Of a stretch of DNA of 64,000 nucleotides, positions 2,434 to 31,287 are shown piece after piece. The position numbers and the translations under genes are program-made. The DNA is from an uncultured bacterium (lineage in GTDB: Bacteria; Omnitrophota; Omnitrophia; Omnitrophales; Aquincolibacteriaceae), in NCBI GenBank assembly GCA_964562525.1, contig CAZLTL010000006.1, positions 31,187 to 95,186 on the forward strand. The letters are read 5' to 3'. A model generated the notes under the pieces. The model did no database searches. It worked only from the letters and a program-made list of their open reading frames with translations, and was not told where the DNA came from. Numbering within the stretch: position 1 is the first letter of the stretch; each line of letters begins with the position of its first letter.

Positions 2434-2473
2434 AATCCCTTTACTTTTTCGCTGGGAAGCCGATACTTGCCTT

Positions 2474-2830: not shown

Positions 2831-3012
2831 AAATCAAGCGGTTTTTTTTGTCGCCGCCTGGCTCGTCCTCTTTTTGCTTGCCAACGGAATACTTCATTGT
2901 AAGATAACGCCCAAGGTCGGCTGCTTTTTCTGTTATTTTCTATTTTTTTACATCTTTTTTACCGAGAGCCGTCCTCCCTTTATTACTTTTTTTGAGGGAA
3001 GGATTATCATTC

Positions 3013-4689: not shown

Positions 4690-4707
4690 TGGGATGGTCT
4701 TCGTAAG

Positions 4708-8456: not shown

Positions 8457-9751
8457 ATCCATTTTCGATTGATACACGCACGATTCAATCGGGTGATCTT
8501 TTTATTGCTTTGGATGGAACCCAACAAAAAGGGTATTCGTTTTTGCCCGAAGCTTTCAAAAAGGGCGCCGCTTCAGCTTTATGCGCGGAAAGCTATCGCG
8601 CGCAAGTCTCTCCTGAATGGATTCAGCGGGTGAGGTTTGTTCCGGATCCCGTTTTGGAAATGGCAAATTTAGCGCGGGAGCATCGCAAGCAATTCGATAT
8701 TCCCGTGATCGGGGTTGTCGGTAGCGTGGGTAAAACATCCACCAAGCAGTTTCTGTCCTATTTGCTTTCAAGACATTTTAGAGTTTTAGCCACCACGGGA
8801 AATTTAAATAATCAGCTCGGTCTTCCGATGATGCTGAGCCGACTCAATCCAGAGCACCAAAAGGCTGTTTTGGAAATGGGCGCGGATCATGTGGGAGATC
8901 TTGCTAACTTAGTCAGCATTGCAGCGCCCGACAAGGCTGTTTTGACTCCCATTGCACCCGAACATTTATTGGGGTTTGGTTCTTTAGCGGGAGTTTATGA
9001 CGGAGAACTTGAGATTTTACTTTCACCTCGACTTAAAACAATCGTCACCGTCGCGGGCGACAAGGAGCTTGACCGCCGTTTGAGTGGATGGTCCGGAAAA
9101 GTGATTCGCGTTGGATTTTCCAAAGAAGCGGATGTGGTGATATCTGATGTTTGTATCGAAAACGGAAAGACTCTTTTCAGAGTTCAGGGTCAGCAGGTGA
9201 CTTTACCAACTACGGCATCCTTTTTGGCGCTAAATGCGGGGCTTGCCGCGGCTATGGCAGTTGAGGCGGGACTTCAGTTGTCGGATATTGGCGGAGAATG
9301 GAATCCGGAATTGCCGAAGGGGCGTTATGCCGCGCGTAATATCGCTCGAGATATTACGGTGATTGACGATACATACAACTCAAGTCCCAAAGCTTTTTCC
9401 GCCGCGTTGGACGCGTTTAAAAAAATAAATTTTAAACGAAAATGGATTATTTTTTCTGATATGCTTGAGCTGGGAGCGGAATCGGCGCATTGGCATGATG
9501 TTTTGGCGGAGGATATCGCTCAATCGGGTGTTCACGCCGCTTGGGCTTTCGGCACTGAAGCTAAACGAACGATTCATCGATTAGAAAAGCGGGCCGGCAC
9601 TATCAATAGCCGTTGGTTCCAGAATGCTGAAAGCTTGGCGGAAGAATTGGTGCTGTGCGTTGAACCCGGAGATGGAATTTTGTTTAAGGGGTCGCGCGGT
9701 ATGCGGGTTGAAAAAGTTTTAGAGATTTTAGAGAAAAAGATCGCTGTTTAA
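8453..9751 (+). CDS. murF: UDP-N-acetylmuramoyl-tripeptide--D-alanyl-D-alanine ligase (MurF)
   Basis: The Mur ligase P-loop is GVVGSVGKTSTKQ. It overlaps murE by 4 nt and sits in the canonical dcw order. Confidence 0.9.
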   Translation: MNPFSIDTRTIQSGDLFIALDGTQQKGYSFLPEAFKKGAASALCAESYRAQVSPEWIQRVRFVPDPVLEMANLAREHRKQFDIPVIGVVGSVGKTSTKQFLSYLLSRHFRVLATTGNLNNQLGLPMMLSRLNPEHQKAVLEMGADHVGDLANLVSIAAPDKAVLTPIAPEHLLGFGSLAGVYDGELEILLSPRLKTIVTVAGDKELDRRLSGWSGKVIRVGFSKEADVVISDVCIENGKTLFRVQGQQVTLPTTASFLALNAGLAAAMAVEAGLQLSDIGGEWNPELPKGRYAARNIARDITVIDDTYNSSPKAFSAALDAFKKINFKRKWIIFSDMLELGAESAHWHDVLAEDIAQSGVHAAWAFGTEAKRTIHRLEKRAGTINSRWFQNAESLAEELVLCVEPGDGILFKGSRGMRVEKVLEILEKKIAV

Positions 9752-9771: not shown

Positions 9772-10857
9772 ATGCTTTATTTTTTGCATCAATTTGCATC
9801 AGAATCGATTGTTTTTAACCTTTTTCGGTACATTACTTTCCGCGCTGCCGCTGCCGCGGTTTGCGCTTTTCTTTTCAGTTTGCTTTGGGGACCGCGCTTA
9901 ATTCAGGATTTAAAAGCCTTGAAAGCGATTGCTAATAACCAGCGCGAACACGCTGAGTCCATTCATCACCTTTATGCTGATAAGAAAAATATTCCGACCA
10001 TGGGTGGCGTGCTGATTGTGCTGAGTGTTCTGTTTTCTACTTTGTTTTGGGCGAATTTAACCAACCTTTATGTTTGGCTTTTGATCGCGGTTTTGATCGG
10101 ATTCGGCTTTGTAGGGTTTCTCGATGATTGGCTGAAACTGCGGTATCAGAATTCTAAGGGGTTGCATGGTCGGCTTAAACTTCTCGGACAAATTTTGACG
10201 GGGCTTTTAATTGCTTGGGTTTTGTATCACTCCGATACTTTTGGACGCATGCTTTACTTTCCATTTTTAAAGCAGCCGATTTTGAATCTTGGAATTTTGT
10301 TTATTCCTTTCGTGATTTTTGTTTTGGTCGGAACTTCCAACGCGCTCAATTTGACGGATGGTTTGGATGGCTTAGCGATTGGATGCGCGTTTTTTACGGC
10401 ATCGACATTCGCGGTATTAGCTTATGTGACAGGCCGCCAAGATTTTACGGCTTATCTTTCAATACCTTATTTACCGGGCGCGGGTGAAATCACCGTTTTT
10501 TGCGCCGCTTTGGCCGGAGCTTGCGCGGGGTTTCTTTGGTATAACGCTTATCCTTGTCAAATTATGATGGGCGATACTGGCTCCCTTTCGCTGGGCGGCG
10601 TCATCGGTACGGTGGCTGTCCTTTTGAAAAAAGAATTTGTACTTGTGATTGTCGGCGGTATTTTTGTTTGGGAAGCCCTTTCCGTGATTATTCAGGTGAC
10701 GAGCTTTAAGCTGACGGGGAAGCGAGTTTTTTTAATGTCGCCGTTTCATCATCATTTGCAGAAATTGGGATGGCCTGAGAATAAAATTGTAATTCGCTTC
10801 TGGATTATTGCTTTTATGCTCGCCATCGTCGGTCTCGCTACGCTGAAAGTCCGATAA
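9772..10857 (+). CDS. mraY: Phospho-N-acetylmuramoyl-pentapeptide transferase (MraY)
   Basis: The motifs NLTDGLDGLA and MGDTGSLSLGG and about 10 transmembrane helices are present. Confidence 0.95.
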   Translation: MLYFLHQFASESIVFNLFRYITFRAAAAAVCAFLFSLLWGPRLIQDLKALKAIANNQREHAESIHHLYADKKNIPTMGGVLIVLSVLFSTLFWANLTNLYVWLLIAVLIGFGFVGFLDDWLKLRYQNSKGLHGRLKLLGQILTGLLIAWVLYHSDTFGRMLYFPFLKQPILNLGILFIPFVIFVLVGTSNALNLTDGLDGLAIGCAFFTASTFAVLAYVTGRQDFTAYLSIPYLPGAGEITVFCAALAGACAGFLWYNAYPCQIMMGDTGSLSLGGVIGTVAVLLKKEFVLVIVGGIFVWEALSVIIQVTSFKLTGKRVFLMSPFHHHLQKLGWPENKIVIRFWIIAFMLAIVGLATLKVR

Positions 10858-10983: not shown

Positions 10984-12237
10984 ATGAATAATCTTCCTCC
11001 GGATATCGGAAAAAATGTGGTCGTTCTTGGTTTGGGTGAAAGCGGCTATCAAAGCGCGCTTGAGCTTCAAAAGCTGGGTTTTGATGTTTTTGCCACGGAT
11101 AAATCCGATACGCAAATTTTAAGAGAACGGGTCGATGCTTTGTCACGGAAAGGCGTTCAAGCGGAATGCGGAAAGCATACTTTTGACCGCGTCCAGTCAG
11201 CTGACTGGGTTTTAATTTCTCCCGGTATTCCGCCGCAATCAGAAATTTATCAGGCGCTTTTAAAATGGAAAAAGCCGGTTTACAGCGAAATTGAAGCAGC
11301 CAGTTGGTTTTGCCCTTCAAAAAATATTGTTGCGGTGACGGGCTCATGCGGAAAAACTACCACCGTGACCCTCATTCAAAGAATTTTAAAAGAAGCCGGC
11401 CGTGATGTGGTGTTATGCGGCAATATCGGCAATCCTTGGATCGGAGAATTGTCCAAAATCAAGCCTGAAACTTGGGTCGTTTTGGAAGTCAGTTCTTTTC
11501 AGCTTAAACATTGCCGCAAATTCAAACCCCATATCGGAGTCTTGCTTAATATTCATGCCAACCATCTTGATTGGCATCCTTCTCTTGAAGACTATGCTCA
11601 TTCAAAGTTGAAAATATTTGAAAATTTAGTCAAGCATGACTGGATGCTGCTTCAACAATCAGATGAAAAGCAATATGGTCCGATTCGTTCTTCCTCGACC
11701 AAGCATTATTTAAACCCGGTTGGGCAGGAGAGTTTGCTTGAAAATGCCGCGCGCCAAGTTGCTGAAATTGCGGATATTTCGTTTTCGGTGGTGGAGCATG
11801 TGTTTCGCAACTTTGAAGGGCTTGAGCATCGGCTTGAAAAGTTTTGGGAAAGTGACGGCGTTCAAGCCGTGAATGATTCCAAGTCCACGACACCCGCTTC
11901 GCTCATTTGGGCTTTAGGGCGTTATCCTGATCAGAGTGTGGTCTTGATTACGGGCGGCAGAGTTAAAACGCCCTCTTTCGTGGAGTGTTTGCCCGCGCTT
12001 AAGGCGAAAGCAAAAAAAATTGTTGTGATCGGTGAAGCACAGCCTATGATGCTTCAAGAGTGGGCCGAGCTGAATCCTCATTCCGCCGAGTCGCTTGCCG
12101 CTGCTTGCAAAACCGCATTGGCTTCTGCCCAAAAAGGGGATACGGTCCTTTTTTCACCCGCTTGCTCCAGCTTCGACATGTTCAAAAGCTACATCGACCG
12201 CGGTAATCAGTTTAAATCCCTCATTCGCCAAAGATAA
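10984..12237 (+). CDS. murD: UDP-N-acetylmuramoylalanine--D-glutamate ligase (MurD)
   Basis: The N-terminal Rossmann region is VVVLGLGESGYQSALEL. The Mur ligase P-loop is VAVTGSCGKTTT. It follows mraY as in dcw clusters. Confidence 0.9.
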   Translation: MNNLPPDIGKNVVVLGLGESGYQSALELQKLGFDVFATDKSDTQILRERVDALSRKGVQAECGKHTFDRVQSADWVLISPGIPPQSEIYQALLKWKKPVYSEIEAASWFCPSKNIVAVTGSCGKTTTVTLIQRILKEAGRDVVLCGNIGNPWIGELSKIKPETWVVLEVSSFQLKHCRKFKPHIGVLLNIHANHLDWHPSLEDYAHSKLKIFENLVKHDWMLLQQSDEKQYGPIRSSSTKHYLNPVGQESLLENAARQVAEIADISFSVVEHVFRNFEGLEHRLEKFWESDGVQAVNDSKSTTPASLIWALGRYPDQSVVLITGGRVKTPSFVECLPALKAKAKKIVVIGEAQPMMLQEWAELNPHSAESLAAACKTALASAQKGDTVLFSPACSSFDMFKSYIDRGNQFKSLIRQR

Positions 12238-12434
12238 ACTGTTCCTTACTATTCTCAGACCTGTGATCTAGGATCTGAGCCTTCAATGCTATGATTTGCT
12301 ATAAATGCTAGCTGTTGCTATGCACAATGAATAAAAAGTCATTAAAGATAGCTGTAAATATTGTAATTATTTAATCTTCTAGGTAGCTTTCTATAGGAAG
12401 AACAGACTTTCTAATATGAAAAAAAACTAAATTC

Positions 12435-15400
12435 ATGAATAGAGTCCCGAGAATTTACAAGCTAATCGCAGTGTTTACCGCACTTTGCTTAGAGTGCACG
12501 TCCATCTCCATTCCCACTTTGCATGCTCAAACAGTTCCGCAAAATATTCTTTCTGTAAAAAAACTGAATCCTGAGATTCTTAAATTACCGGAAAAGTTTG
12601 GTGAGGTGGTGGAAAGCCATGCGGGAAATGGAAATGTGATTGTGGTGCAGGACGCGCACGCAATTCCGGATGCGCAGAAGAATATCGCGAATGTGATCAA
12701 GTATATGCAGCAAGAGTATGGCGTGGGAACCGTTGCACTTGAAGGTGCGAGCGGCGATCTCGATCCGCAAATCTTCCGCAGTTTTCCTGATAAGAAGCTG
12801 CTGCGAGAAGTGATGAACGGGTACATGAATTCGGGTGAAATCGCGGGCGGTACGGCTGCTGCGATTTTCGACGAAACCACAACGAAGTATGTCGGGGTAG
12901 AAGATTGGGATGTTTATGAAGAAGGTTTGGGGCTTTATCTCTCCGCGATGGATAAGACCGCAGCCATTGAAGCTCAGCTATCTGCTTTGCGTGAAAAGTT
13001 AAACAAGGAAAAAGAAGCGATTTATCCGCGGGCGTTACTTGAAGTTGATCACGAGATCGAAAAGTTTTATGAAAATGCCGCGCAGCTAACGGAACTGATT
13101 AAAGTGTTGGGAGCGATTCAAGCCCCTAAGGCAGGCAGTGAACTTGAAGCGGTGTGGAAGGAAGTTTCGAAAGCCCACAGTCCGGCGACCGGAGGCGAGA
13201 GAAAGGACATAGAGGTTCGTGCTTTAGCAGCGAAGGTCGAAAAGGTGTTAAAGAGCCCAGGGGCGGTGAAAGCGTTTAACAGCCGTAAACAAGAATGGAT
13301 GACAGGTCAGATCAGCGCAGAAGCCTTTGCACTCAATTTGAAAGAGTTTGCTGATCAAAGCGGACTTAATCTTGAGATGTCCTCCGATTTGCTCGGAATG
13401 GTACGAGACCAGCAAACGTTAAAGGGGCTTGAAGGAACCAAGCTGTTTCGGGACTTAGAGATTTATATCCGTGAAGTGAAGATGCAGTTAACGCAAAGAC
13501 AACAGACGGATGTTTCGGTTAGCGGTGTGAATGCTGAGATGTCAGCGATTCGGGCGTTGGATGAACGGACGAATTCACTGCGTGTATTAACGAAGCTATC
13601 AAAACTTGAGTTGTCCCGCCAAGAGTGGACGAATTTATCGGGGAATTTGGTGTTTGAGGCCTTTGCGGCATTGGGATTAAAACAAGAAGACTTTCTGTTC
13701 CACCTCGCTTTTTATCTGAATGCTGAAGAACGCGACCAAATCTTTTTCGATAATCTCAAAGCTTCGGTCACCGGCCTCCGGCCTTCCGTGATTGTGGCCG
13801 GTGGTTTTCACGCGGAAGGAATCACGAGCCGCCTCAAAGAGGCGGGAATGGGCTATGCGCTTGTGATGCCGAAGATCAATCACATTCCTGAAAATAACTC
13901 GTACAAAGCGCAGATGCGCGGGGAAGTGTCGTGGAAAGATTATTTTGAAGTTGAGAACGGTCGCATCCATCTTTACAAGGCGTTTGTGCGCGCAACGCGC
14001 GACAAGCTTGTCGCAGACCGGAGACCGGAGGTCGGAGGGCAGAGTGACTCAGAGCTCCGGACCCCGGACTTAGGCCTATTAAAAGCTTGGCGCGATCAAA
14101 TCATCCGTGATTTATCGGATATGGGGAAGGTGAATCGCGCGGCCTGGTACACACGGTTTATGGATGAAGTGGTGGACGAAAGCCTGAAGCACACCGATGC
14201 CGACAAGCTGATGATCAAAGTCGACAATTTTATCCGCGGTTTGCGCGGACTTGAGAAGAACAATCAAATTGATCAGGCAAATATAGCGGATTTACTCAAG
14301 GCAAGTATGGCGTCACCTGCTGTTACTTCCCCAGCTGTTGTCGGTACCCCGCTGTCGTTTCCGGTTAATCCCGCAAGTGAAGTTACCATGCAAGAAGCAT
14401 GGGCTAGCGTCCGGGAGTCTCTTCCTGTCGCCATAATTAATGCTTCTCCAGCAGATAATACGCAGTTGCAAGAGCAGGTGACGACGATTCAGGCAAATGA
14501 GCCAATTAATTACAGTGGACTCTCAGCTGAGTTTGATGCAGCAGCTATTAAGCAAACGGCCTTACTTAGCAATTTGGTTCGGCGGGTCTCAAGTATTACC
14601 GATGCAGATTTGGAGTATGAGTGGAATGAAATGGGACGACTTCTTCGTTTGGTGAACGGGATGAAAGGAGAGCCCGACCCGCGAGATCCGGAAGCAATTT
14701 TTGGTTCTGAAGAGCGCAATTTTAAACTACCGGTTGCAATGCGTTCCAAAATTGTGCGCAGTTTGAGTGAGCGAATTCAGTTTAAGTTGGCATGGACGCA
14801 TGCTGTAAATACATTTTTGAACGATGCTGAAGGTGTATCCAAGTTGGCAAGCCGGGCTGCCCCTGCATTAAGAGAGAGTAATGATGAGGGCGCGGCTGTT
14901 GAATTTGAAGTTTTGTCTCCTGGACAATTAACGGACGAAGAATTCTACCGTACTCTTTTGGGCGACAACGGAACCGTGAGCAATGGGTTGATTGGTTCGG
15001 GAAATTTAGTAGCAGCTTTTCGACTTGTTACTCAGAAAATGGCCGTCATGATCAAGGCCGGACCCGAAGGAGTTCCCGGTGGATCAAGAGAGCTAATCAA
15101 GCGCGTTCATGCCTTAGATGGAGTCGCTAAAATGATCCGCGATGAAATTACAACAATGCAGCGCTCCGAAGCGCGGGTTAATGAAAATGCGCCGACAGAT
15201 CAGGCGGCACGGGAGGAAGCGCTTGCAACTGATGAGAAGCTGAAAAGGCTTGATGTCACGACTTTCTTTAAAGAGATCCTTAAATCGGAATGGAAGTGGT
15301 TGTTGGTTGGTTTTGTTTTATTAATTTTGAGCACCATGCTCTACGACTTAGTCGCTGTTACTACGGTCGCGCAATTTTTTTTAAAATCTCTGGGGGTGGG

Positions 15401-18400
15401 TGTTGGTTTCTCTTGGGGTGCGATTTTGCTGTTCAATCCTTTGACAGTGCTTACCCATGAATTAGGGCATTTTCTAACCTACCGATTAGTTGGCGGTAAA
15501 TCCGATAACACGTTTGGTTTTAATAGGCACTCCTACTTTTTCAATGCAGATGACATATATAAACTCCCCATATGGAAAGTTCGGATTGTGGATATGGGTG
15601 GGCTTGTGATCAACACAGCTATTTTTGCCACAATTGGTCTTATTTCGTATCTTACTTTGGGCGCGACCCCTGTTCTTATTGCTCTCGCTGGACTTCAACT
15701 TGCTGAATTTATAATGGCTTCCGGTGATTATGAGAAATTCTTCAATGCCAGAGGGTATCAGGCTTTGAGCCTTGATATTGCAAAGTTTCAGGAAGAGATC
15801 AAAAATTACAAACCTGAATTTCATGCAGATGGCACGCGAATATCGGCTGAAGCTGATCGCCCTTTGGATGAGCAAACTCAACGCGAAGCACGGGTGGATA
15901 AAACAGAAGAGGCTTTGAGAAGTGGGGCGTTAACAGTTGAAGGGAAAACGGCGGTTTTTGGCCCTCAGGCGAATAAAGATTTTGCGATAGGAGTAAGCCC
16001 GGAAGTTTCATTTGTGGATTTAGATAAAGCCGATTTTGTAACGAAAGCAGAAACATTTCTCTTTCAATCGCTTTTCTTTGCGGCGGCTTTTTTAAAAATC
16101 CCTGTTGGGAAAGAGCAGAAATTAAATACTTACAAGGAAGTATTTGAAGCGCTTCAAAATGCCAAAGCCGCGGTCAAAAATGCCGGTGGCTTAAGCTTGT
16201 ATGCTGCCCAAGAAAAATTAAAAGAAGCCCAAGCTGAAAAAGATGAGTTTGTGGCTGAAGCTCAAAAGAGAGGTTTTGCCGAGTTTTTGCTTCCGGGTGG
16301 AATTCTAAGCCGCCGCATGGAGATTTTTGTTCCCAATGAAAATCAGCGCGAACGGCTTTTAAAGTATTTAACCTTAACTTTTGTAGGGCAAAGTAAGGAA
16401 TCGCTGCTCTCAGACATTCTGAAAGTGCAGCAAAAATTAGGAGTCACTTTTGATCCGGCGGTTCTTGAGCAGCTTTTAGCCGAGTTTGAATCAAAGCGCA
16501 GCTTCATGTTTCCCGGGGGAGTTTTTGCCGGGAAAATGGATGCAGAGATTCAAGATATTTTTGGTCAATTTATTCAGGTGAAAGTTTTAAGTCAAACCCA
16601 AAGTGTTTCAAGCCCCTCAGTTGGAAATATTCAGCTCAATCTTTCAGGTGCGTTGGTTATGGGGGCAGGCCAATCTGAAGTCGCTGTGGATTGGGATCAA
16701 GTTTTACAGTCAGGAGAATTGGCTCCGGCATGGTCTGAAGCTTTTACTGCACAGCTCAAGAAGGCGCTCATCTTTAAAGATGGGAAACTGCGTGTGTTTA
16801 ATCTCGGGACAGGCGACCCCACCCCGTTTAGCCAGAATCAAGATTACACACATATGGCATTTATTGTGAATGGGAAAATGATTGTTACCGATCCGTCCAT
16901 TCGCAGTATTCGTAATCTTGAGCGTTTGGGATTTTTGGAAAAAGTTGAGGCAATTCATCTGACCCATGTTCACTTTGACCATGTAGGTGGCATTTTAGAT
17001 ATAGCGCGCCGTAAACTCAAAAAATCGGAATCCTTGCCTAAGCTTAAGCTGGTTATGCCGACTGTTGTTGCGCTGCAACTCGAAAGAACTCTTGCTTATA
17101 ACTTTTCCACGATGGCTGATGATTCAAATTATGATTTCAGCCAGCTTGCGCTGGTCAGCGAACTTTTCGATTATCGGGGACCTGAGAAAATCAATAAAAC
17201 GATAGAAATTTCCCAATTACAAGAATCTGCAGAGTTTAAAGGTGTTCAAATTGAACTTGCACCAACGTTTGGACACCCGATTCCAACCTACGGAGTCAAA
17301 TTGATTACTCAAGAGGGTTTGAAGATAGCCTATTTGTCCGATTCAGTGATGCCAACCCCAACGATTAAAGCAGCGGATGGAAAGGCAATCCCTAATCCTC
17401 GATATTCGGAGTTTGTAAGTTACTATGCGGATTCAGATATATTGATTGCTGAAAATGGCGTGCCGGGCGTGCATATTACTCCCGAGCAGCTTGCCGAGGC
17501 TTTCCCTGAGCATATTAATAACGGAACTCTGTTTACTGTTCATTCGTCGGGTCCCCAAGCTCAAAAAGGGTTAATTCGATTTATGCCGGGCATGATCTTG
17601 TCTCCGCTTCAATCGAATCAAAGAAAGCAAGATGTTCAGCAAAGTGCAGCGACGCTCATTGAGAATGAAGCTATTCGAGATTTTTTAAAGTTAAATTTAG
17701 AGTTAGCCCAAGAACTTTCGAGTATGGGAACGAAGGTTTCATTTTCTGAGGGGGAAGTTCTTTTTCAGCAAGGCAACCCGGTTTATGACTTTGATCATGT
17801 TTATATTTCTTTATCCGGCGAAACAATCGTTGAGGGGCCCGGTGCAAAGCGGCTTCCTTCGATTGGAGCTGGGAGATTAATCGGTGAAATGGCGCTTTTG
17901 ACTAAGGCTTTGACGCAAGAACAATATGACCAGATCATGGTAGCCATCGGGAAGGGTAAGGATACGGCAGCGCTCGATTTTTTTGGGAGAGTGACTTACG
18001 ATTTGGTAATCGAAGGGCAGCCTCCTTATCGCATTGTGAATCCAAGTTTTGACTTAGAAATAGAAGCGAAGGAATTGACGGAGGATCAAAAATCAAAGTT
18101 AAAGCCTGTCTTTGATATTGCAAAGTCAGGTAAACCCATTCCGCGATCGGTAACGGTTCGGGCAGGTGCGGGAGCAACTTATTTAGCGATTCCCAAAGAT
18201 GCTTTTTTACAGTTTTTAACACGAATTGATGCGTCAAAAATCGATTCGAGTCGACAAGCATTCATTTCAGCTATTTACGCACAAATTGGCATCAATCTTG
18301 ATTCTCGAAAAAAGATGAGTGAGTTAGCCACTCCCACTCAGAACGAAACAGATGTGGTAAAGGCATCAGCTGATACGTCAGTTCGCTCCGAAGCGCGCGC

Positions 18401-21400
18401 GGATGTTGAATGGTTTAACTGGCGCGTGGACAAACAAGGCAATCCAGTTTCGAATGCCGGGCCTATGAGCGAGCTTGTCACTTTGAATGTTGGTGACAGT
18501 ATCTACTTTGAGGTTCCAAAAAATAAGCCGGGTTTGATCGACTATTACTACCAAGTCGGAATGGAGGGCGAGAATTTTACTTTTCAGCGCTATGAACAAA
18601 GCGGGTCTGTTGCTCAACCTGCTGGTAAGAAAATCGAAATTCCCCGATCACTGCAAACGGATAAGGCCGCTAAAAACAGTGATAACTATCTATTTAGTTT
18701 TCAAGTTAATAATGGAAAACTAATGGTGAGTTCAGGCCAGAAATATGGCTTGCTAAAAAGTAAGGTTAAAAAAGACGGAGCGATTGGTGATAGTAAACCG
18801 AGCGTGCGACGAAAAAAATTTGACGATGCCGCTCGGTCTTATCGTGAAGCATTATCAAAAACAGATTTCCCCAGGTTGAGAAGTTTGTCAGCTGAATTAG
18901 ATGAAAAAATGGACGAAATTTTGGGGGTGGCTACGAATGGTTTATTTCTAATACCGCTTGGTTGGCTTGAAGGACGAATCAAAGAAATGGATGCGGGGTT
19001 GCGTCGAATTGAGAGACATGAGTTATCGGGTCAGGGTAAAGAAGCTTTGGGCTGGGCGATGCAGGTGCTGACGGAACAAATCAATCATTTTCGAAATTCT
19101 GTTGTTGCTGTTAATTTAGAACTCAATCTTTTGACCCAAGGAGAGAAAATTAATTACGATGTTTTTAGTGAGTTGATAGAGAGCTTTCTTCAAACCAACA
19201 GCTTATTTGCATTATCTCAAGAGTTGAATGTTCGCATGCAGTCCTACCCTGAGACAATTGAGTTCAGTTTAAAAAATGTCGATGCCGATTCAAAGATTTC
19301 TGCGCTTAAAAGGCGAATTTTCGATTATGGGCAAGCAACGGCTACTTTGACGCGTCTTGAAGACGCTCGAATATTTTTTGAGAACAGCTGGAAATTGTAT
19401 GATGATCTTGTTGGGTTGATTCAGCAAATGGCATTAGAAATTCAAAGACGTGATGAAACCGAAATGACGATTGAAAGAGGTGCTGAGGCAGCAAAAGAAC
19501 AGCGCAATCAGCTTTGGCGGAGTATTGATTATTATGAAGTGCTAGGTGTTTCTCGAGATGCTTCTCTAGGGGACATAAAAAATGCTTATCGCAGTTTAGT
19601 TCGCGCGGGTAATCATCCGGATAAGGTCGCAGGCGACTCTGCTACGCTAAAAGCAGCTGAAGAGAGATTTAAAGAAATAGGACCGGCATATGAGGTCTTA
19701 AGTAATGAAGTAGACCGCGCTGAATATGACAAAATTCATTTTGCCCGTTCCGAAGCTCGTTCGGTAGACTCAGGGCAAGCGCGGGACTCGTATGAGCGCT
19801 ACAAGCTTTTATCAGGGACTTTGGCAGATTTACCTGACCCTGTATTTGTCAACGATGGGGAAACGATTACTTTGCGGATTCCGCATGATGAAGTCGAAGG
19901 TAGTCAGCCCGAGCTTGATCTTTTGGTTGTATTCAAAAAATTTAATGGGAAGGTGTTTTTTGCCCACCTAGATTCATTTTCAGACTTATCAATGCTTGAT
20001 GAATATTACCGTTCTGCTGATCCTCTTCAGGAAGGTTCTCGAATCAAATGGGAAGAGGTGAACGAGACTTCAGAAGTTGAGATTATAGGTCGTGAGGAGG
20101 AAATGGATAGTGAGGGTACCAAGGTCAAGATTGTTTTTAGTGAACAGGGTTTTACGATTGCCAATGCCTCGATCTCGGATGTTTATTATTTTGAGGGTAA
20201 GCCCGGTCCGGAAATTATTGCTTCCGCTCTTCGGGATAGTTATCTTTCAAGTGCGAGCACAGGTTTGCCCATAGCCACCGAGCCAATTTTTATTGCCGGG
20301 GAGGATGCAACTGAAATTTTTAACTTGGTCACTGAGTTTATTAATCAGGGTCCGTATGTTCCTGCTGCAGGCGAAACCGCTCTCTACACAAAGGTGAAAC
20401 AACAAATTAGGTTGATTACCGAAAGAACCGGCGAAAAGTATCGATTCAACCCGATGATTCAAATAAATGCCTTAAGTGATACTTATAGAGCTTTAAACAA
20501 TTTTCTCATGAATCGATTTACTGACCTGGAAGGCTTGGAAAAAGGTGTGGTCATTCTCAAGCGAATTCCTAATCTTGAGAAGCTGATCGAAGTTTTAAGA
20601 CATTTAATATCAGCTTACGAGCTGGCTTTTAATCACCTTGAGAATTCAACTATTGAGATCGAGGTGGATGAAAAAGAAAACCATCGGCGTCATGCCTTGC
20701 AAATGCTGGTTGAGTTAAAAAAGATTGTTAATTCATATGATTCAATTCCTCCTGCCGAACGACCGCGGGCTGAAATCCAAGGAGAAGTTCGAATGGCAAG
20801 GTTGCCCAGCCAAAAAAACTTTTCCGAGTTCATTTCTTACAATGGCGATAAAATTCCACTTTGGGCAATTAAAAGAATTTATCTGCCGGATAATAGGGTT
20901 ATTCAATTTGGTGAGATTTCTCAGGCTAATAACGAGGATGGTGTGTATGATCGGGAGGATCGCACGAGAGACGTTAGGAATGCCTTGTCACCATTTCCAG
21001 AGAGTGCGGAGATCGTTTTTGAGCTGCAAGATGGCGTTTTATTAAAGCGAATTTTGGAAGCGGAAGAGTATGAGACGATAACGGCAGTCTATCCGGTTGA
21101 TTTTGACCCCAAAGAATTTAGCAGGCTTCCGCACGGAATAGATTTACCGGAGCGGCGGTTTATAAATGCAGTTAACGTGAACGGGTTTATTACCACCCTT
21201 TATGAGTTGGAATCTCTTTTGCCTGAGACTGGGTTAGCCGGCAGGACAGTGACTTTTTTCTATTCCGCGAATAACCATCTTCAAGCCTTCAAAATCAGTG
21301 ATGAAGCTAAACCTCAGTCTGAGCAATATGTTTACTCTCAGTTTCGAAATTCAAGCAATGTTCAGCCTATGTCCGCGCCTTTTTCTGCTCAGGAAACTCA

Positions 21401-23033
21401 AGAAATTGCAAAAAAGGATTTGGTTGACCTATTTGCGGATCTCTTTAATCGCCGTGCGTTGACCTCCGCGCAGAGGGTGGTTCCGTTGAGCGCGCTTATT
21501 CTTCAATTTTTGGCTGTCTCGCTTAACGCTAAGGCTGTTTCAGATTGGGCTCAGGAAGGCAAAGTTCCGCTGTTTGAAGTTGAGTTGGCGAACGAACAAA
21601 CCATTTCATTCAGCGGGCTTAATCCTGCTTTACATCACGATGATGCCGTGCGGATTGAAAGACTGCTATCTCAGATTGACGGGGGATTGGATGCCGCTTC
21701 TTTTCGAATTGTTTTGGCGCCTGCTGGACCGGCTACCCAGTCGAATCAAGCGGGGCAATTTTTTGATCGACCCGGGCGTGGTTTGGATGAGTTCAATGCC
21801 TGGCATAAGTTATCTGATGTCTTGGAACTGTTTTTTCTGTCAGTGGGCGAAACTGGCAAAGACAAGAAATTGGATGCTGCGTCAAAACAAAAACTTTTAG
21901 ATAAACTCGCCGTGCTTGTTGAGGCGATAGCCATGATTCATCCTTCAGTAACAGGAAGTGAAATTTATCATACTTTATATGCTGTCATGGATGCTTCAAT
22001 GTTTAGGGCTAAAAAACTAGATACAGGCAGCAGAATCAATGTTTTGATTAATTTGGCGCGCCAAATCAGAGCCGCTGCGCCTCAAGATCCTCAACAGAGC
22101 ATTTATGTGCAAGGTGAGTTTGAATCAAAATTAAAGACCCCAAACTTAGATCTAAATGAATTGGCAAAAGAGACTGCCCGCTCCGAAGCCCGTTCGGCAG
22201 ACTCAGGGCAAGCGCGGGAGGCTGAGGCGGTTGCGGGAGATGTGTTTGGCTTTTTTAAATCGCCCGCGGATTATTCTGCAGACCAGATAAATACTTTGGC
22301 AGATGAAATTGATACATTGGCTGATAAACAAGGGCTTGATGTTTTTGTGAATCTCTTGCGATCGATAGCTCGAGACTTAGCTGTCGTTAGTGTTCAGGGG
22401 AGCGAAAATATTTTAAGCAAAGAAGCGACAAGTTTTGCCGTGAAACTTTTTGTTGGACGCATGATGGCAGCAAAGCGGCAGTCGACTTTAATAGATGTAA
22501 AAATCGAGAAGCCAACCATTGCTTTAGCATTAAAATTGAATGATGCCCAAAAAGCTTCTCTGGGAGATAAGTTGTCCAGCGAATTGGCTGAAATTCTGGG
22601 TGCGGTTCAGATTGAGGCCAAAGATTTTAAAGAATTAGGTGCGTTTTTTAAGAGCGTAGGGGTTTTAGTGACAACGATTGATCCCGATCTAGCAAACGCA
22701 GTTGTATTAGAAAGTTTTGGTGCGGATTGGAGTGGTTTACCTGCCGTGGGTGTCTTAGAAGAATCGCAGCAATTTGATTCGGAGTTAGAAGGGATGCGTA
22801 TTTATTTGCAGCTTTTGATCGCGGCTTATTTAGCTCGGAGCTTTCCGGATAAGAAAGTAATTTTGACACCCGAGATTGTTGGCGAGATTAATAAGCTGCT
22901 GTTTCAATCTGATGCAGGGCAAGAAGGAATTGTGCAGATACAAAATGGTCAGTTAGTTGTTAAACGAAGCAGTCTGCTGGCATATATTCAAACCTTATTC
23001 GCGGCGCAATCTGCCGTTGCAGTCGCCGCGTAA
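12435..23033 (+). CDS. Giant multi-domain membrane protein (3532 aa): signal peptide, conserved extracytoplasmic N-module, transmembrane cluster carrying HExxH, MBL-fold domain, cNMP-binding-like domain, J-domain and a long C-terminal region. It is inserted between murD and ftsW.
   Basis: This is an uninterrupted 10.6-kb ORF. It has a cleavable-looking signal peptide ([32 protein letters not shown]). Its N-module is paralogous to the two other giant ORFs, and several internal motif matches are listed separately. Confidence 0.85.
12531..13880 (+). other. Shared N-terminal module of giant 1 (motifs QDAHA at 12648-12662, LEGA, and AGGFHAEG at 13797-13820); possible Tiki/TraB/GumN-like fold
   Basis: It aligns by eye with the N-modules of the 1141-aa and 4733-aa ORFs, for example [32 protein letters not shown] versus HIQDAHA..VIKYLNTNYGFKTILVEGAASELDP. 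The xAH...E...GxxHxxG pattern resembles the TraB/GumN signature, which is an inference. Confidence 0.5.
15291..15740 (+). other. Transmembrane cluster in giant 1 carrying an intramembrane HExxH motif (HELGH at 15456-15470) of site-2-protease (M50) type
   Basis: The sequence [24 protein letters not shown], flanked by hydrophobic helices, resembles the RseP/SpoIVFB HEFGHF motif context. Confidence 0.4.
16790..17550 (+). other. Metallo-beta-lactamase-fold domain in giant 1 (HxHxDH at 16956-16991)
   Basis: The MBL motif 2 is a strong match ([12 protein letters not shown]). Downstream there are GHP and D/H positions ([22 protein letters not shown]). Confidence 0.6.
17700..17910 (+). other. cNMP-binding (CAP-family)-like domain in giant 1
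   Basis: The sequence [53 protein letters not shown] matches the G-E-x-F-x-Q-G ... F-G-E-x-A-L-L beta-roll pattern. Confidence 0.45.
19527..19733 (+). other. DnaJ-type J-domain embedded at about aa 2365-2433 of giant 1 (HPD at 19614-19622)
   Basis: The sequence [69 protein letters not shown] shows canonical helix II, the HPD loop and helix III. Confidence 0.8.
19743..19786 (+). repeat. Intragenic 44-nt near-identical direct repeat, copy A; copy B is at 22176-22219 (40/44 identical). Both encode ARSEARS(V/A)DSGQAR, and a shorter related copy is at about 18384-18404.
   Basis: The sequence gcccgttccgaagctcgttcggtagactcagggcaagcgcggga is compared with gcccgctccgaagcccgttcggcagactcagggcaagcgcggga. 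Both contain the internal palindrome ccgaa-N5-ttcgg. Confidence 0.8.
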
Positions 23034-23065
23034 TCTTTTCCTTATCAGCACCACAAGTCCCGGGT

Positions 23066-23107
23066 TGGTTTTGGTCGTTGGTCTCTAGTCGTTAGTCTTT
23101 AGTCTGT
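23066..23107 (+). repeat. Degenerate heptanucleotide tandem array ((a/g)gtc(g/t)(t/c)t x5-6) ending about 10 nt upstream of a TATTAT -10-like box and 16 nt before the ftsW ATG
   Basis: The sequence reads directly as ggtcgtt ggtctct agtcgtt agtcttt agtctgt ggtatta tctgctcc ATG. Confidence 0.7.
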
Positions 23108-23122
23108 GGTATTATCTGCTCC

Positions 23123-24229
23123 ATGTCACGCGAAGGCCGTCTTCTTTTTTGGGCTTCTTTTATCCTTGTCGGATTTGGTTTGGTCATGGTTTATAGCTCC
23201 AGCGCCGTTGTTGCTGCTGAGCAATACAAACATGCTTCCTATTATCTGACACGCCAGGCTTTATTTGCCGGTTTGGGAGTAATGGCTTTCTTTCTCGTTG
23301 CCTCCATTCCGCTGAGTTTTTATAAAGATCACGCGCGCACAATTATGTTTTGCGCCATCGGACTGACTTTGCTTGTCTTCGTTCCTGGTTTGGGCCGTTC
23401 AGCGGGTGGTGCGCGCCGCTGGATTACTTTGGGCGGATTTAATATTCAGCCCGCTGAGTTTGTAAAGCTGGCTGCTTGTATTTATTTAGCCAACTACTTA
23501 TCCCGAAAAGTAACCGTCGTTCAAAAGGGAACTTTAAGTGTTTATATTCCACCCGCAATTTTGATCGGATTGGTGTGCCTCTTGGTTTTGGTTCAGCCCG
23601 ACTTGGGTTCTTTCGCTTTTCTTGTGATTTTGACCAGTTTGGCATTTTTCGTGACTGGTCTTCCGGTCCGCTTCGTTGCTATTGCTTTGGGTGTTTTGAT
23701 TCCTGCGTTTTATTTCCTGATTGTGCGTGTGCCTTATCGTATGAAGCGCCTCGAAGCCTATCTTAATCCTTGGGATGATCCGCAAGGCAAAGGTTTCCAG
23801 ATTATTCAGTCTTTGCTTTCTTTTGCTTTGGGCGGAACCACCGGTGCGGGGCTTGGGCAGGGAACTCAGAAACTTTATTATCTGCCGTCAGGGCACAATG
23901 ACTTTATCTTTGCTGTAATCGGCGAAGAGTTGGGGCTTTTCGGGACTTGTTTTGTTTTGGCCGCTTTTTTGGTGATTTTTTACGCCGTCGTGAAGATCGC
24001 TTCCCGGCGTCAGCAGATTTTTGAAAAACTTCTCGTTTTGCTTTTAGGCTATTACCTCGTTATTCAAGCGATGATTCATATGATGGTGTGCACCGGTTTA
24101 GTCCCTACAAAAGGCTTGCCGCTTCCTTTCATTAGTTATGGTGGCAGTGCTTTAATTGCGAATATGGTGGCGGTGGGGTTGATTATTGCGTGTGACAGAC
24201 ATACCCGAGTCGAATGGAAACCGCAATAA
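23123..24229 (+). CDS. ftsW: Cell-division / peptidoglycan glycosyltransferase FtsW (SEDS family)
   Basis: It is a 10-transmembrane SEDS protein (GLVMVYSSS ... PTKGLPLPFISYGGSA). It occupies the dcw position between murD and murG. Confidence 0.88.
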   Translation: MSREGRLLFWASFILVGFGLVMVYSSSAVVAAEQYKHASYYLTRQALFAGLGVMAFFLVASIPLSFYKDHARTIMFCAIGLTLLVFVPGLGRSAGGARRWITLGGFNIQPAEFVKLAACIYLANYLSRKVTVVQKGTLSVYIPPAILIGLVCLLVLVQPDLGSFAFLVILTSLAFFVTGLPVRFVAIALGVLIPAFYFLIVRVPYRMKRLEAYLNPWDDPQGKGFQIIQSLLSFALGGTTGAGLGQGTQKLYYLPSGHNDFIFAVIGEELGLFGTCFVLAAFLVIFYAVVKIASRRQQIFEKLLVLLLGYYLVIQAMIHMMVCTGLVPTKGLPLPFISYGGSALIANMVAVGLIIACDRHTRVEWKPQ

Positions 24230-24233
24230 CCCG

Positions 24234-25340
24234 ATGAAGACGATTGTTGTTTTTTCTGGTCCGTCGGGGGGGCATTTATTTCCGGCGCAGGCATTTGCGG
24301 AAGTTGCTCATGCGGAATCTGCTGATTTTAAAATTATTTTGGTGACCAGCGTTCGGGCTCGGGGACTTTGCGCAAAATTTCCTGCGGATATTTTTTCTGA
24401 AATTATTTATCTCCCGGAATTCGGCTCGCCGATTGGCTTTTCCTGGGCCGGCTTCAAGGCGCTGCTCAATATTCCCGTTGCGATGGTTCAAAGCTGGATT
24501 TTGCTTTCTCGTTTAAAACCGGATTTGTGCGTTGGCTTTGGCAGTTTCGTTTCGTATTTTGGGATGCTTTTCGCTGCATGGCGGGGAATTCCGACTTTAA
24601 TTCATGAACAAAATCAAATGCCTGGCAAAGCAACGCGCATGCTGCAAGGGTGGGTCAAAACCGTCGCAGTTTCATTTCCTGAAACGCATTTTCGTAAAAA
24701 ACCACACGAAGTGATTGTGACCGGGTTGCCAATTAGGCGTGCAATTCGAGAAAACCGCATTGATTTTGACAAAAAACAAGGGCATCCGTTCACGGTTTTG
24801 GTTTGTGGCGGCTCGCAAGGTTCGGCTTTTTTAAACCGGGCGGTTCTATCCGCATTTTCTGGTTTTTCCGCTGAAGAACGTGCGAAATTTGCCGTTATAC
24901 ATATCACGGGAAATTCGGCTGAAAATTTGGTTCGCGAAACTTACGCGAAGTTAGGGATTTCCGCCGAAGTTTATTCCTTCTTTGAAAAAATGCACGTTTT
25001 GTACAACCGGGCGAATATGGCTGTTTCAAGGGCAGGAGCCAATAGCTCGTTTGAACAGGCTTTGTACGGTATTCCAACGGTGTTCATTCCGTATCCTTTC
25101 GCGGAAGGGCATCAAAATGATAATGCAAAGTACTTTGTTGATCATGGTGCAGCAATCATAGTGCCTCAGGATGAGCAGGCTGGTAAGCAAGTCGGGGCTT
25201 TGATTCAGGCTTGGTCTGAGCGGTCGGCTGAATACCATGAGGCGGTCAAAAAAATGATCTCGGTGAGCTTTGAAAATGGGGACATTCGTCTCTGGAATAT
25301 TGCCAAAAATATGTTAAAACTTAACACATGCAATTCTTAA
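24234..25340 (+). CDS. murG: Undecaprenyl-PP-MurNAc-pentapeptide UDP-GlcNAc transferase (MurG)
   Basis: The N-terminal motif is GGTGGH-like (SGPSGGHLFPA) and the C-terminal motif is VSRAGANSSFE. The track ORF begins at 24186, but the MKTIVVF start at 24234 avoids overlap with ftsW. Confidence 0.88.
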   Translation: MKTIVVFSGPSGGHLFPAQAFAEVAHAESADFKIILVTSVRARGLCAKFPADIFSEIIYLPEFGSPIGFSWAGFKALLNIPVAMVQSWILLSRLKPDLCVGFGSFVSYFGMLFAAWRGIPTLIHEQNQMPGKATRMLQGWVKTVAVSFPETHFRKKPHEVIVTGLPIRRAIRENRIDFDKKQGHPFTVLVCGGSQGSAFLNRAVLSAFSGFSAEERAKFAVIHITGNSAENLVRETYAKLGISAEVYSFFEKMHVLYNRANMAVSRAGANSSFEQALYGIPTVFIPYPFAEGHQNDNAKYFVDHGAAIIVPQDEQAGKQVGALIQAWSERSAEYHEAVKKMISVSFENGDIRLWNIAKNMLKLNTCNS

Positions 25341-26740
25341 ATTCGGAATATCAAAATTTGTTCGGAAAAGTCCGCTCAGTTTACCTTGTCGGTATTGGCG
25401 GAGCGGGTATGAGCGGGTTAGCACGCATCTTAAAAACACAGGGTTTTGATGTTTCAGGCTCTGACCGCAAAGCGACTCCCATTCTTGAGCAATTACAGGC
25501 CGAAGGCATTCAGATTCATGTCGGTCAGCAATCTCCTGGATTTACGCAAACAGACTTGGTGATTTATTCGACGGCCATTGCTCCCGACCATATTGAAATG
25601 AAGCAGGCCCGTGAAAAGGGAATTCGCACCTGTCATCGCGCTGAAGCTTTAGCCGCAGTGTTCAACCAAGCTGAAACGTCGATTGCGATTACCGGAACGC
25701 ATGGCAAAACAACCACTTCCGCGATGGTTTCATTTTTACTCGCCAAGCTGGGTAAGTCCCCAACGAGTTTTGTCGGCAGTGAAATGCTGAATTTTGGAAG
25801 CAATGTTTTATCCGGTTCCGCGAATAATTATTTTGTTGCGGAAGTGGATGAAAGCGATCGGACGCATGAGCTTTTTTCTCCGAATTACGCGATTATTACC
25901 AATCTGGAAATGGATCACCACGAGAGTTATGAATCGATGGAAGTGCTTGGCGATTCATTCCGAAAATTTTTAAGCCGTTTTCATTTTCCGGGGCTCGCAG
26001 TGCATTGCGGTGATGACGCTTTTCTGCATCAGGTGGTTAAAAGCTCCGGTAAACCCAGCCTGAGTTACGGCCTTCAGCCGCAAAATGATTTTTCGGCCCG
26101 TAATATTGAGTTTCGCTCTTTCGGATCCGAGTTTGACTGGTATGAGGGAGATTTCTTTCTGACGCGTGTTCGGCTTTCAATACCGGGCGTTCATAATATT
26201 TATAACTCGATGGGTGCGCTGATTGTGTGCCTACAGCTGGGATTTGATCTCGAAGCTTTAAAAGCCGCCATTTTTGAATTCCGCGGAACTCGCCGCCGCC
26301 TCGAAATAAAATATGACTGTGATGCGATGACGGTTGTGGATGATTATGCGCATCACCCGACGGAAATTACGGCTTCATTGCGGGCGCTTCAGTCTTCGGG
26401 CCGGAAAGTTTTGACAGTGTTTCAGCCGCATCGTTATTCGCGTGTTCGGCATCTCTTTAAAGAATTTGCCGGCGCTTTGGGTGAAGCGCAGGAAGTGTAT
26501 CTGACTGATATTTATGCCGCGGGCGAGCAGAATCCTGATAACGTCAGTATTCAAATGATTTACGAAGAAGCGCAGAAACACGGCATTCATCGAATTACGA
26601 TGGTGAAAAAACAAGATTTGGTTCCAACCTTGCTTCGGCGGCGTGTTGCCAACGAAGTGATTGCTTTTTTAGGCGCGGGAGATATTGGAGAAGTAGCGGA
26701 TGAATTTGTCAGCAGTTACCGATCTCAAAATCAGGCGTAA
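25328..26740 (+). CDS. murC: UDP-N-acetylmuramate--L-alanine ligase (MurC)
   Basis: The N-terminal Rossmann region is VYLVGIGGAGMSGLA. The Mur ligase P-loop is IAITGTHGKTTT. Confidence 0.92.
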   Translation: MQFLNSEYQNLFGKVRSVYLVGIGGAGMSGLARILKTQGFDVSGSDRKATPILEQLQAEGIQIHVGQQSPGFTQTDLVIYSTAIAPDHIEMKQAREKGIRTCHRAEALAAVFNQAETSIAITGTHGKTTTSAMVSFLLAKLGKSPTSFVGSEMLNFGSNVLSGSANNYFVAEVDESDRTHELFSPNYAIITNLEMDHHESYESMEVLGDSFRKFLSRFHFPGLAVHCGDDAFLHQVVKSSGKPSLSYGLQPQNDFSARNIEFRSFGSEFDWYEGDFFLTRVRLSIPGVHNIYNSMGALIVCLQLGFDLEALKAAIFEFRGTRRRLEIKYDCDAMTVVDDYAHHPTEITASLRALQSSGRKVLTVFQPHRYSRVRHLFKEFAGALGEAQEVYLTDIYAAGEQNPDNVSIQMIYEEAQKHGIHRITMVKKQDLVPTLLRRRVANEVIAFLGAGDIGEVADEFVSSYRSQNQA

Positions 26741-27611: not shown

Positions 27612-27621
27612 TTTATTTTTT

Positions 27622-28542: not shown

Positions 28543-28586
28543 ATACGAGGAGCTCCGACTGCGGTTTGCGGGAGTGGGATTGAAAA

Positions 28587-30645: not shown

Positions 30646-30667
30646 AGTCTACTTTTTTGGAGCTTTC

Positions 30668-31285: not shown

Positions 31286-31287
31286 TT

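Follow-up and report, generated by a model that had tools for sequence, protein, structure and literature searches.

A giant modular gene of variable presence between murD and ftsW in the division and cell wall cluster of Omnitrophota

The window analysed here, a stretch of 64,000 nucleotides (nt) from an uncultured Omnitrophota bacterium of the family Aquincolibacteriaceae (assembly GCA_964562525.1, contig CAZLTL010000006.1, positions 31,187 to 95,186), carries a giant open reading frame (ORF) of 3,532 amino acids (aa) between murD and ftsW, inside the division and cell wall (dcw) cluster, for which the literature emphasises conserved gene order and even MurD-FtsW fusions (PMC10214165). The murD-ftsW locus is polymorphic for the presence or absence of this giant gene among close relatives, and the gene belongs, as one of its paralogs, to a large family of proteins of 2,000 to more than 4,000 residues that is found throughout Omnitrophota and has an N-terminal head domain in common. 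The body of the gene is mosaic and turns over fast. Taken together, we consider the giant ORF to be probably a lineage-specific accessory gene lodged at a pre-existing boundary inside the dcw cluster. Coordinates below are those of the window unless they follow the handle of another locus (L001 and so on), and the arrangement around the site is as follows.

6999-8456, + strand: murE (ORF list, Pfam)
8453-9751, + strand: murF (ORF list, Pfam)
9772-10857, + strand: mraY (ORF list, Pfam)
10984-12237, + strand: murD, last gene of the upstream dcw block murE-murF-mraY-murD (Pfam Mur_ligase_M, Mur_ligase_C, MurD_N)
12238-12434, + strand: left spacer, 197 nt, GC content 0.31 (sequence composition)
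12435-23033, + strand: giant ORF, 3,532 aa with an ATG start, comprising a predicted signal peptide or anchor, the N-terminal head and a variable modular body
23034-23122, + strand: right spacer, 89 nt, GC content 0.46 (sequence composition)
23123-24229, + strand: ftsW, which opens the downstream block ftsW-murG-murC-murB-ddl-ftsQ-ftsA (Pfam FTSW_RODA_SPOVE, E 3e-101)

The ORF list and Pfam place the entire dcw cluster, from murE to the end of ftsA at 30645, on the + strand, and bear out the claim of a preliminary description of this DNA that the giant ORF stands between murD and ftsW in their orientation. It separates the two genes by 10.9 kb, and the chance of a 3,532-codon open frame is about 1e-89. 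The spacer lengths reported in that description (197 and 89 nt) are exact, the left spacer is indeed AT-rich (the mean GC content of the window is 0.457), and the heptad repeats described in the right spacer were recovered by TRF as a period-7 array at 23070-23105 (5.1 copies, 75% matches), though with a low score of 37.

The closest relative of the window MraY is the protein of Candidatus Omnitrophica bacterium UBA2337 (99% identity), followed by proteins from other Omnitrophota metagenome-assembled genomes (MAGs). Treating as close relatives all lineages with a MurD at least 72% identical to that of the window, a large gene follows murD in five (the window, L163, L082, L168 and L003) and murD is followed directly by ftsW in three (L004, L164/L165 and L166/L167), the spacer in these empty sites measuring about 120, 27 and 110 nt, respectively. 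A more distant outgroup, L005, also lacks the giant gene and has murD adjoining ftsW. The comparison of synteny proposed in the preliminary description thus shows murD and ftsW to be contiguous elsewhere, and its view that a canonical adjacency is interrupted in the window holds. Between murD and the giant gene, L003 (GFS_2494) additionally carries a Phd/YefM antitoxin and a PIN-domain toxin on the minus strand (12555-13296), convergent to murD.

The occupied site is not an artefact, because five independent assemblies carry one or both junctions. An assembly chimera joining unrelated contigs at murD and ftsW, the eventuality that the preliminary description regarded as fatal to its finding, might be suspected from the way MAG assemblies break nearby (the UBA2337 contig, L002, stops 283 nt past mraY) and from L162, which begins within the giant gene. 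However, L163 (Logan SRR22388275), from a different sample and species, holds both junctions on one 36.6-kb contig in the order murF, mraY, murD, a 3,501-aa ortholog of the giant protein, ftsW and onwards to ftsA, mlaC and an MMPL gene. The right junction recurs in L162 (Logan ERR15459718), which is 98.8% identical to window positions 22190-29347 and so spans the boundary of the giant gene and ftsW. The left junction recurs in L082, L168 and L003, all from other species, where a homologous large gene comes directly after murD (in L003, beyond the toxin-antitoxin pair) and where the contig or fetched stretch stops within the large ORF, leaving ftsW out of view. The spacers, moreover, are conserved across species, and the probability of a chimera is practically nil.

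A neighbour-joining tree of MraY and MurD places L166, which lacks the gene, at the base of these lineages. The window, L163, L082 and L168, all of which carry the gene, form a clade with 100% bootstrap support, and their sister group comprises L164 (without the gene) and a pair, also with 100% bootstrap support, of L004 (without) and L003 (with). To account for this distribution one must assume two gains (or a single gain plus a lateral transfer), or else a single gain plus two losses. Placement between murD and ftsW has been retained in at least four species, among which the synonymous divergence (dS) of flanking genes is 0.5-0.9.

Conserved signals next to ftsW suggest that the boundary at which the giant gene sits is older than the gene itself. 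In every member of the genus a TATAAT/TATTAT box ends 7-8 nt before the ftsW ATG, after 4-6 heptad repeats; in the window it is a TATTAT box at 23110-23115, ending 7 nt before the ATG. The heptad sequence differs between species while the period of 7 is kept, and the arrangement is present in all three lineages that lack the giant gene (L004 at about 6920-6976; L164 at about 6885-6920, where the array extends into the 3' end of murD; L166 at about 4700-4746). The same -10 geometry is found at three of 24 gene starts in the window, namely ftsW and a divergent operon-start pair, which consists of an acyltransferase gene (60389) and a TPR gene (60320, minus strand). We posit that the heptads and box are likely the promoter of ftsW itself, giving a leaderless mRNA and predating the insertion. 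A leaderless ftsW promoter with a period-7 array would be an unusual layout. Because ftsW would have its own promoter, a 10.6-kb gene or a toxin-antitoxin pair could be tolerated upstream of it.

The giant gene likewise appears to bring regulatory sequence of its own. A block of about 130 nt before its ATG (12305-12434) is conserved in the window, L163, L082 and L003, while the adjacent coding sequence diverges faster. The block holds ATGCTAGCTGTTGCTAT at 12305-12321 and TTGTAATTATTTAATCT at 12361-12377, and includes ATGCTA-N5-TTGCTA and TTGYAATTATTTAATCT. Such conservation makes it likely that the block serves the giant gene as promoter and 5' leader, which points to transcription independent of murD. 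Signals for termination after murD are clearest in relatives: the murD-ftsW spacer of L004 contains a perfect hairpin with 12-bp arms and a short U tract (-30 kcal/mol, z -3.8), and L003 has a 17-bp hairpin just after murD (-36.8 kcal/mol, z -6.1). The hairpin in the left spacer of the window (12254-12279) is weak (-12.2 kcal/mol, z -1.1, no U tract) and resembles one arm of the L004 murD terminator hairpin. In gene-bearing genomes a sequence like one arm of the L004 hairpin follows murD, and a sequence like the other arm and U tract follows the giant gene; the similarity is short, but suggestive of an insertion inside a former terminator. Consensus scans of both window spacers returned no intrinsic terminator, and no promoter or terminator above shuffled expectation. 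Rfam matched no RNA family over the whole window, hence no riboswitch or leader is known in the spacers. Separately, the 7-mer TTCCTTA occurs at 12242-12248 and 23038-23044, 4 nt past the stop of murD and 4 nt past that of the giant gene. The identical offset is curious and may be a trace of the origin of the insertion, although one shared 7-mer between the spacers is expected by chance.

The giant gene belongs to a large and so far unannotated protein family, which the locus defines through its head domain, the only part common to all members.

12531-14354, + strand: N-terminal head domain, aa ~33-640

Only the first ~650 aa of the giant protein have database homologs (20-42% identity), all from Omnitrophota or metagenomes, and every homolog whose source names an organism is from Omnitrophota. 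A scan of metagenomes with an alignment of head homologs detected over 441 relatives; 80 loci were retrieved for examination, and identity of the head to these and to 22 database proteins ranges from 20 to 75%. At all 80 loci the head domain stands at the start of a large open frame, the complete frames having a median of 2,686 aa and many exceeding 3,900 aa. Of the 57 loci that extend 1.5 kb or more upstream, one (L082) has a dcw gene nearby. No head-domain relatives were found on the viral contigs searched, and exact-sequence look-ups of the giant protein and of the protein P0023 found neither on record. The family alignment shows invariant Q72-D73-A74-H75, E103 and R433 and a nearly invariant G456-G457-F458-H459, and the ratio of non-synonymous to synonymous divergence (dN/dS) of the head against the L163 ortholog is 0.13-0.17.

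A structural model of the head suggests an EreA/ChaN/TIKI/TraB-like, hydrolase-like fold, and RRSP, an effector of MARTX toxins, is among the structural neighbours of the model. A Foldseek search of the model against the PDB returned nothing significant, a head-domain profile search of the PDB gave no match to the EreA/ChaN/TIKI/TraB superfamily, and Pfam searches of 18 head-domain members at E values up to 1 gave no TraB/GumN or ChaN match.

Several metagenomic contigs hold two copies of the head domain, as does the window, where a second paralog of 1,141 aa (41847-45272) is 28-29% identical in the QDAH...EGA and GGFHAEG blocks. It is followed by a 4,733-aa ORF (45438-59639) with no Pfam domain above threshold, and a head-domain protein followed by a further large gene is also seen in L001 and on the contig of the protein P0001. 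The giant gene downstream of the head-domain protein in L001 was considered as a relative and rejected, being unrelated to the giant gene between murD and ftsW.

Beyond the head, the giant protein is a series of modules, for which the landmarks are the following.

15162-15176, + strand: RSEAR motif 1, module boundary, aa 910-914 (motif scan)
15294-15719, + strand: transmembrane cluster, aa 954-1095, with HELGH at aa 1008 (hydropathy and motif scan)
16845-17915, + strand: metallo-beta-lactamase (MBL)-fold hydrolase, aa 1471-1644, and cNMP-binding domain, aa 1768-1827 (Pfam)
18384-18398, + strand: RSEAR motif 2, module boundary, aa 1984-1988 (motif scan)
19527-19730, + strand: J domain, aa 2365-2432, with an intact HPD (NHPDK) (Pfam PF00226, NCBIfam in agreement)
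19746-22219, + strand: candidate exchanged cassette, 2,474 nt, aa ~2438-3262 (blastn against L163 11184-13657)

Mosaicism of this body is evident in two relatives. L082, the closest species, with an MraY 98.9% and a MurD 87% identical to those of the window, shares aa 1-646 of the giant protein only, at 75% identity; the remainder, more than 3,300 residues, is unrelated to the window protein and carries a NUDIX domain instead of the MBL, cNMP-binding and J domains. In L163, the flanking dcw gene products are 88-99% identical to those of the window (dS 0.53-0.94, dN/dS 0.01-0.10; MurD 91% identical with dN/dS 0.057, FtsW 98.6% with dN/dS 0.018), whereas the giant protein and its ortholog are 62% identical overall, with a dN/dS of 0.32. 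BLASTP of individual modules, delimited by RSEAR motifs, gave identities to L163 of 69% for the head, 48% for the MBL and cNMP module, none for the J-domain module, 97.4% over 806 aa for the fourth module and 38% for the C-terminal one. The L163 ortholog has, in addition, two modules absent from the window protein.

The near-identical fourth module corresponds to a cassette with 98.3% DNA identity to L163, compared with about 86% in the surrounding dcw genes, and with a dS of 0.01-0.02 inside it compared with 0.5-0.9 (about 0.7) in its flanks. Its edges are two 41-nt repeats (19746-19786 and 22179-22219) encoding ARSEARSxDSGQAR. We read this as the likely result of a recent exchange of a whole module between lineages. 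The L162 contig also begins at 22190, within the second 41-nt repeat.

Predicted functions of the modules are varied. The N-terminus of the giant protein looks like a signal peptide. The transmembrane cluster resembles a membrane-embedded HExxH metalloprotease, although its match to NCBIfam NF058609 (YydH/LiaK HExxH protease; 25.1 bits, E 1.2e-5) is far below the cut-off of 225 and no profile of a Site-2 or YydH-type membrane protease family matches above cut-off, leaving HELGH in a transmembrane helix as the only sign. Of the protease proposed in the preliminary description, then, the motif in its membrane setting stands and the assignment to a family does not. Its J domain and MBL, in contrast, were both matched by Pfam above cut-off. 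The MBL region scores 23.9 bits with PF00753 (cut-off 22.7) and 26.1 with PF12706, just below the cut-off of 27, contains HVHFDH (HxHxDH), and has weak PDB matches to glyoxalase II and Apyc1; the MBL of the L163 ortholog scores 35 bits. The J domain is clear (63.4 bits, cut-off 27.8). Its module, the third (aa 1989-2437), is missing from the L163 ortholog, and L082 has no J domain either. Elsewhere, J domains occur several kb downstream of a head match in L147 (20768-21019), L124 (9232-9423) and L156/L157 (15893-16084). If these share an ORF with the head, the J domain would be a reused module of the family and not a peculiarity of the dcw copy.

Apart from DnaJ, cNMP_binding and MBL, Pfam found no domain in the giant protein. 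The middle third (aa 1101-2439) had no match at E <=1e-3 in a word-indexed database, and its homology is for this reason known only from L163. The C-terminal 1,093 aa have just six relatives among 1.84 billion representative proteins, and an AlphaFold model of the cassette (aa 2439-3249, from a three-sequence alignment) had a mean pLDDT of 38.9 and was unusable. In this genome the modules would comprise an MBL hydrolase coupled to a cNMP-binding domain, a J domain and a membrane segment reminiscent of an HExxH protease, together with two orphans.

The modules are punctuated by a pentapeptide. RSEAR occurs four times in the giant protein (15162, 18384, 19746 and 22179), each time at a domain boundary, for instance 5 residues past the J domain. 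Across 81 Omnitrophota loci (L082-L161 and L001), RSE[AV]R was found 115 times in frames of at least 800 aa (48 per 100,000 aa). Frames of 300-799 aa contain none, and still shorter ones 10 in 1.85 million aa, making the enrichment in large Omnitrophota ORFs about 90-fold. The motif is present in 44 of the 81 loci; L001, L003, L082 and L163 carry it. R1, E3 and R5 are strict; S or A fills position 2, and position 4 admits V, L, M, A, T, I, S or Q. This gives a general pattern R-[SA]-E-x-R with unconserved flanks and domain-scale spacing (median ~400 aa). Since the serine codons of the motif vary across lineages, selection acts on the protein. Within the window, the general pattern occurs 14 times in the three large ORFs (4, 1 and 9 times), the sites outside the giant gene being at 43707, in the second paralog, and at nine positions in 45438-59639, and is absent from the remaining 112,294 aa of frames shorter than 800 aa. 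The 3,279-aa giant gene of L001 carries a lineage-specific variant, with 11 copies of RAE[VAI]R and one of RSELR. We suggest that the pentapeptide may be a signal for processing or binding, or one that marks recombination boundaries. Neither the previous study of giant Omnitrophota proteins (West-Roberts et al. 2023, bioRxiv 10.1101/2023.11.21.568195) nor a more recent complete-genome preprint (10.64898/2026.06.07.730766) mentions it.

These observations can be joined in a simple account. The dcw cluster of the genus would already have been split at murD/ftsW, with the terminator-like hairpin seen after murD in relatives on one side and a promoter belonging to ftsW on the other, and a gene placed between the two would disturb neither block. 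Such a permissive site could take a toxin-antitoxin pair, as in L003, as well as a giant gene that brings its own conserved upstream region and whose modules may be exchanged at R-[SA]-E-x-R linkers. Several findings weigh against this account. In this genome neither murD nor the giant gene is followed by a convincing terminator, and read-through, hence one long transcript, is possible because neither spacer holds an intrinsic terminator. The case for both promoters is one of conservation, the consensus scan finding none in either spacer. Retention of the site despite a dS of 0.5-0.9 could reflect a benefit of position. The near-identical cassette, finally, could be an assembly artefact of the Logan contig L163; however, its identity is 98.3% and not 100%, both of its flanks are of L163 type, and its linkers differ from those of the window.

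The preliminary description read the position itself as linking the giant protein to envelope growth. As a functional part of the division and cell-wall operon, the gene would share a transcript with murD and ftsW, and envelope growth would be the target of its J-domain, protease and MBL modules; this agrees with the shared strand, the short and terminator-free spacers, the persistence of the position in at least four species, and a signal peptide, transmembrane segments and protease-like motifs suggestive of an envelope protein. Yet the gene is missing in three equally close lineages (L004, L164/L165, L166/L167) and in the outgroup L005, and the gene found at the site does not always carry the J, MBL and cNMP modules, L082 having NUDIX alone and L163 no J domain. 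Members of the family stand near dcw genes in only one of 57 loci, the -10 box of ftsW is conserved regardless of the insertion, and the giant gene has a conserved upstream block of its own. In L003 a convergent toxin-antitoxin pair and a strong hairpin even separate it from murD. The proposed link is not supported by this comparison, and we consider membership in the division operon unlikely. Recent acquisition of foreign DNA, as cargo of a phage or mobile element or by transfer from another phylum, has in its favour the AT-rich left spacer, presence or absence that varies among close relatives, the recent cassette exchange and base composition. The GC content at third codon positions (GC3) of the giant gene is 0.415, compared with 0.44-0.52 in its neighbours, and falls from about 0.50 at 12435-14835, the head part, to 0.37-0.41 at 14835-23033, the 3' two-thirds. 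This signal is mild, and the composition check suggested in the preliminary description is only partly indicative of acquisition: the gene is slightly lower in GC3 than its neighbours, but the other two large genes of the window are equally low (0.416 and 0.423). Homologs with a named source are all from Omnitrophota, no integrase, transposase or recombinase Pfam domain is found in the cluster or its flanking genes, and the spacers share, beyond the chance number of one 7-mer, no terminal repeat or target-site duplication. Divergence of the head domain, furthermore, broadly tracks that of host genes within the gene-bearing clade. A phage origin was rejected given the absence of relatives on viral contigs, and foreign acquisition as a whole appears quite unlikely.

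A different question is what such a protein does, and here self-processing is a tentative possibility that is compatible with the accessory-gene explanation of the location. The giant protein would be a polyprotein that cuts itself at R-[SA]-E-x-R and so frees separate enzymes, the cutting being done by the head, as a TIKI/RRSP-like protease, or by the membrane HExxH segment; the dcw placement would give growth-linked expression. The motif lies at domain boundaries, with strict R, E and R, unconserved flanks and domain-scale spacing; it is found in bodies that are fused to a head or encoded beside a head-domain gene; it has a lineage variant, RAE[VAI]R, in L001; and the putative hydrolase-like fold of the head presents an invariant H, E and R and a nearly invariant H459. 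Cleavage of giant Omnitrophota proteins has been proposed before, with cleavage points lacking (bioRxiv 10.1101/2023.11.21.568195). On the other hand, prediction places the head outside the membrane, whereas the majority of the sites come after the transmembrane cluster and may be cytoplasmic. The motif could equally be a structural linker, a binding site or a relic related to recombination, and codon identity among the four sites of the giant gene implies that some copies are related by descent. A fuller version is doubtful, though worth stating: R-[SA]-E-x-R would be a processing signal, read by the head in cis or by the product of an adjacent gene, that marks both the cuts and the boundaries of module exchange, and the gene would be a hypervariable effector polyprotein expressed during growth from a protected slot of an essential operon. 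The motif is in any case a directly testable candidate for the cleavage points, the lack of which is stated to have blocked analysis of giant proteins (bioRxiv 10.1101/2023.11.21.568195).

With regard to ecology, the signal peptide, the hydrolase-like head, the swapping of modules and the lifestyle of the phylum favour an outward-facing role, possibly directed at a host, prey or other partner; a predatory or parasitic lifestyle has been reported for Omnitrophota (bioRxiv 10.1101/2023.11.21.568195). More broadly, position in a conserved operon is weak functional evidence when the site bounds transcription units, and sister species here hold different cargo.

Further peculiarities of this dcw cluster lie away from the site. 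In the window (29401-33684), L163 (20856-24483) and L164 (13357-16894), the gene after ftsA is mlaC, then comes an MMPL/RND-type transporter gene, and ftsZ is not found in this position. Upstream of murE no mraZ, rsmH, ftsL or ftsI was seen, and the region instead holds a conserved 156-aa ORF without Pfam match (6532-7002), a GAF-HD protein, an AAA protein and a two-component system. In L003 (7109-9976) and L004 (1506-4355) murE and murF are joined in a single ORF of 949-955 aa, which amounts to a natural fusion of MurE and MurF, whereas the window has two ORFs overlapping by 4 nt (6999-9751).

In comparison with the canonical dcw cluster (murE-murF-mraY-murD-ftsW-murG-murC-murB-ddl-ftsQ-ftsA-ftsZ), the order from murE to ftsA is the same in the window and all relatives, but 10.9 kb part murD from ftsW in part of one genus, and ftsA precedes mlaC and the MMPL gene rather than ftsZ. 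A close parallel to the gene product within the phylum is provided by the giants of West-Roberts et al. (2023), encoded by genes of more than 90 kb, with proteins of more than 30,000 aa, and divided into an Archaeovorin and a Dockerin type, with domain sets of SecA-DEAD, C39 or S8 peptidase, glycosyltransferase, glycosyl hydrolase, methyltransferase and NUDIX, or of dockerin/TSP3 (bioRxiv 10.1101/2023.11.21.568195). Long proteins also feature in the 2026 complete-genome preprint (10.64898/2026.06.07.730766). Shared with these giants are the phylum, great length, membrane association, several enzymatic domains in one protein, scant detectable homology, protease-like domains near the N-terminus with suspected processing and, in the L082 version only, NUDIX. 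The murD-ftsW gene is about ten times shorter, however (10.6 kb, 3,532 aa), and its product has no Pfam match to SecA-DEAD, C39, S8, glycosyl hydrolase, glycosyltransferase or dockerin domains. The head domain and the murD/ftsW/dcw location appear in neither preprint.

The EreA/ChaN/TIKI/TraB superfamily, which includes erythromycin esterases, ChaN, HopBA1, RRSP and TIKI and is characterised by an alpha/beta fold with a catalytic His, Glu, Arg and His, differs from the head in that no sequence-profile match connects the two, the head carries a ~280-residue helical insert between its two halves, and the first motif is GxxH in the superfamily and QDAH in the head. MARTX toxins are very large secreted modular proteins with exchangeable effector domains, RTX repeats and an autoprocessing cysteine protease domain. 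The resemblance is one of analogy only, in that a very large secreted or membrane protein is composed of unrelated enzymatic modules and whole modules are swapped between strains by recombination; the giant protein has no Pfam-detected RTX repeats or cysteine protease domain and a different linker motif.

With respect to its location, the giant gene can be compared with accessory-gene hot spots between conserved core genes (genomic islets). The murD-ftsW site differs from these in lying inside dcw, normally among the most order-conserved of loci, and in having no integrase, tRNA or att-like repeats. It shares with them a presence/absence polymorphism at a fixed site between conserved genes, and different cargo in the same gap, here the giant gene and the Phd/PIN toxin-antitoxin pair of L003. 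With empty and occupied alleles among close relatives, the locus thus provides a rare and well-documented case of a hypervariable accessory gene inside the dcw cluster.

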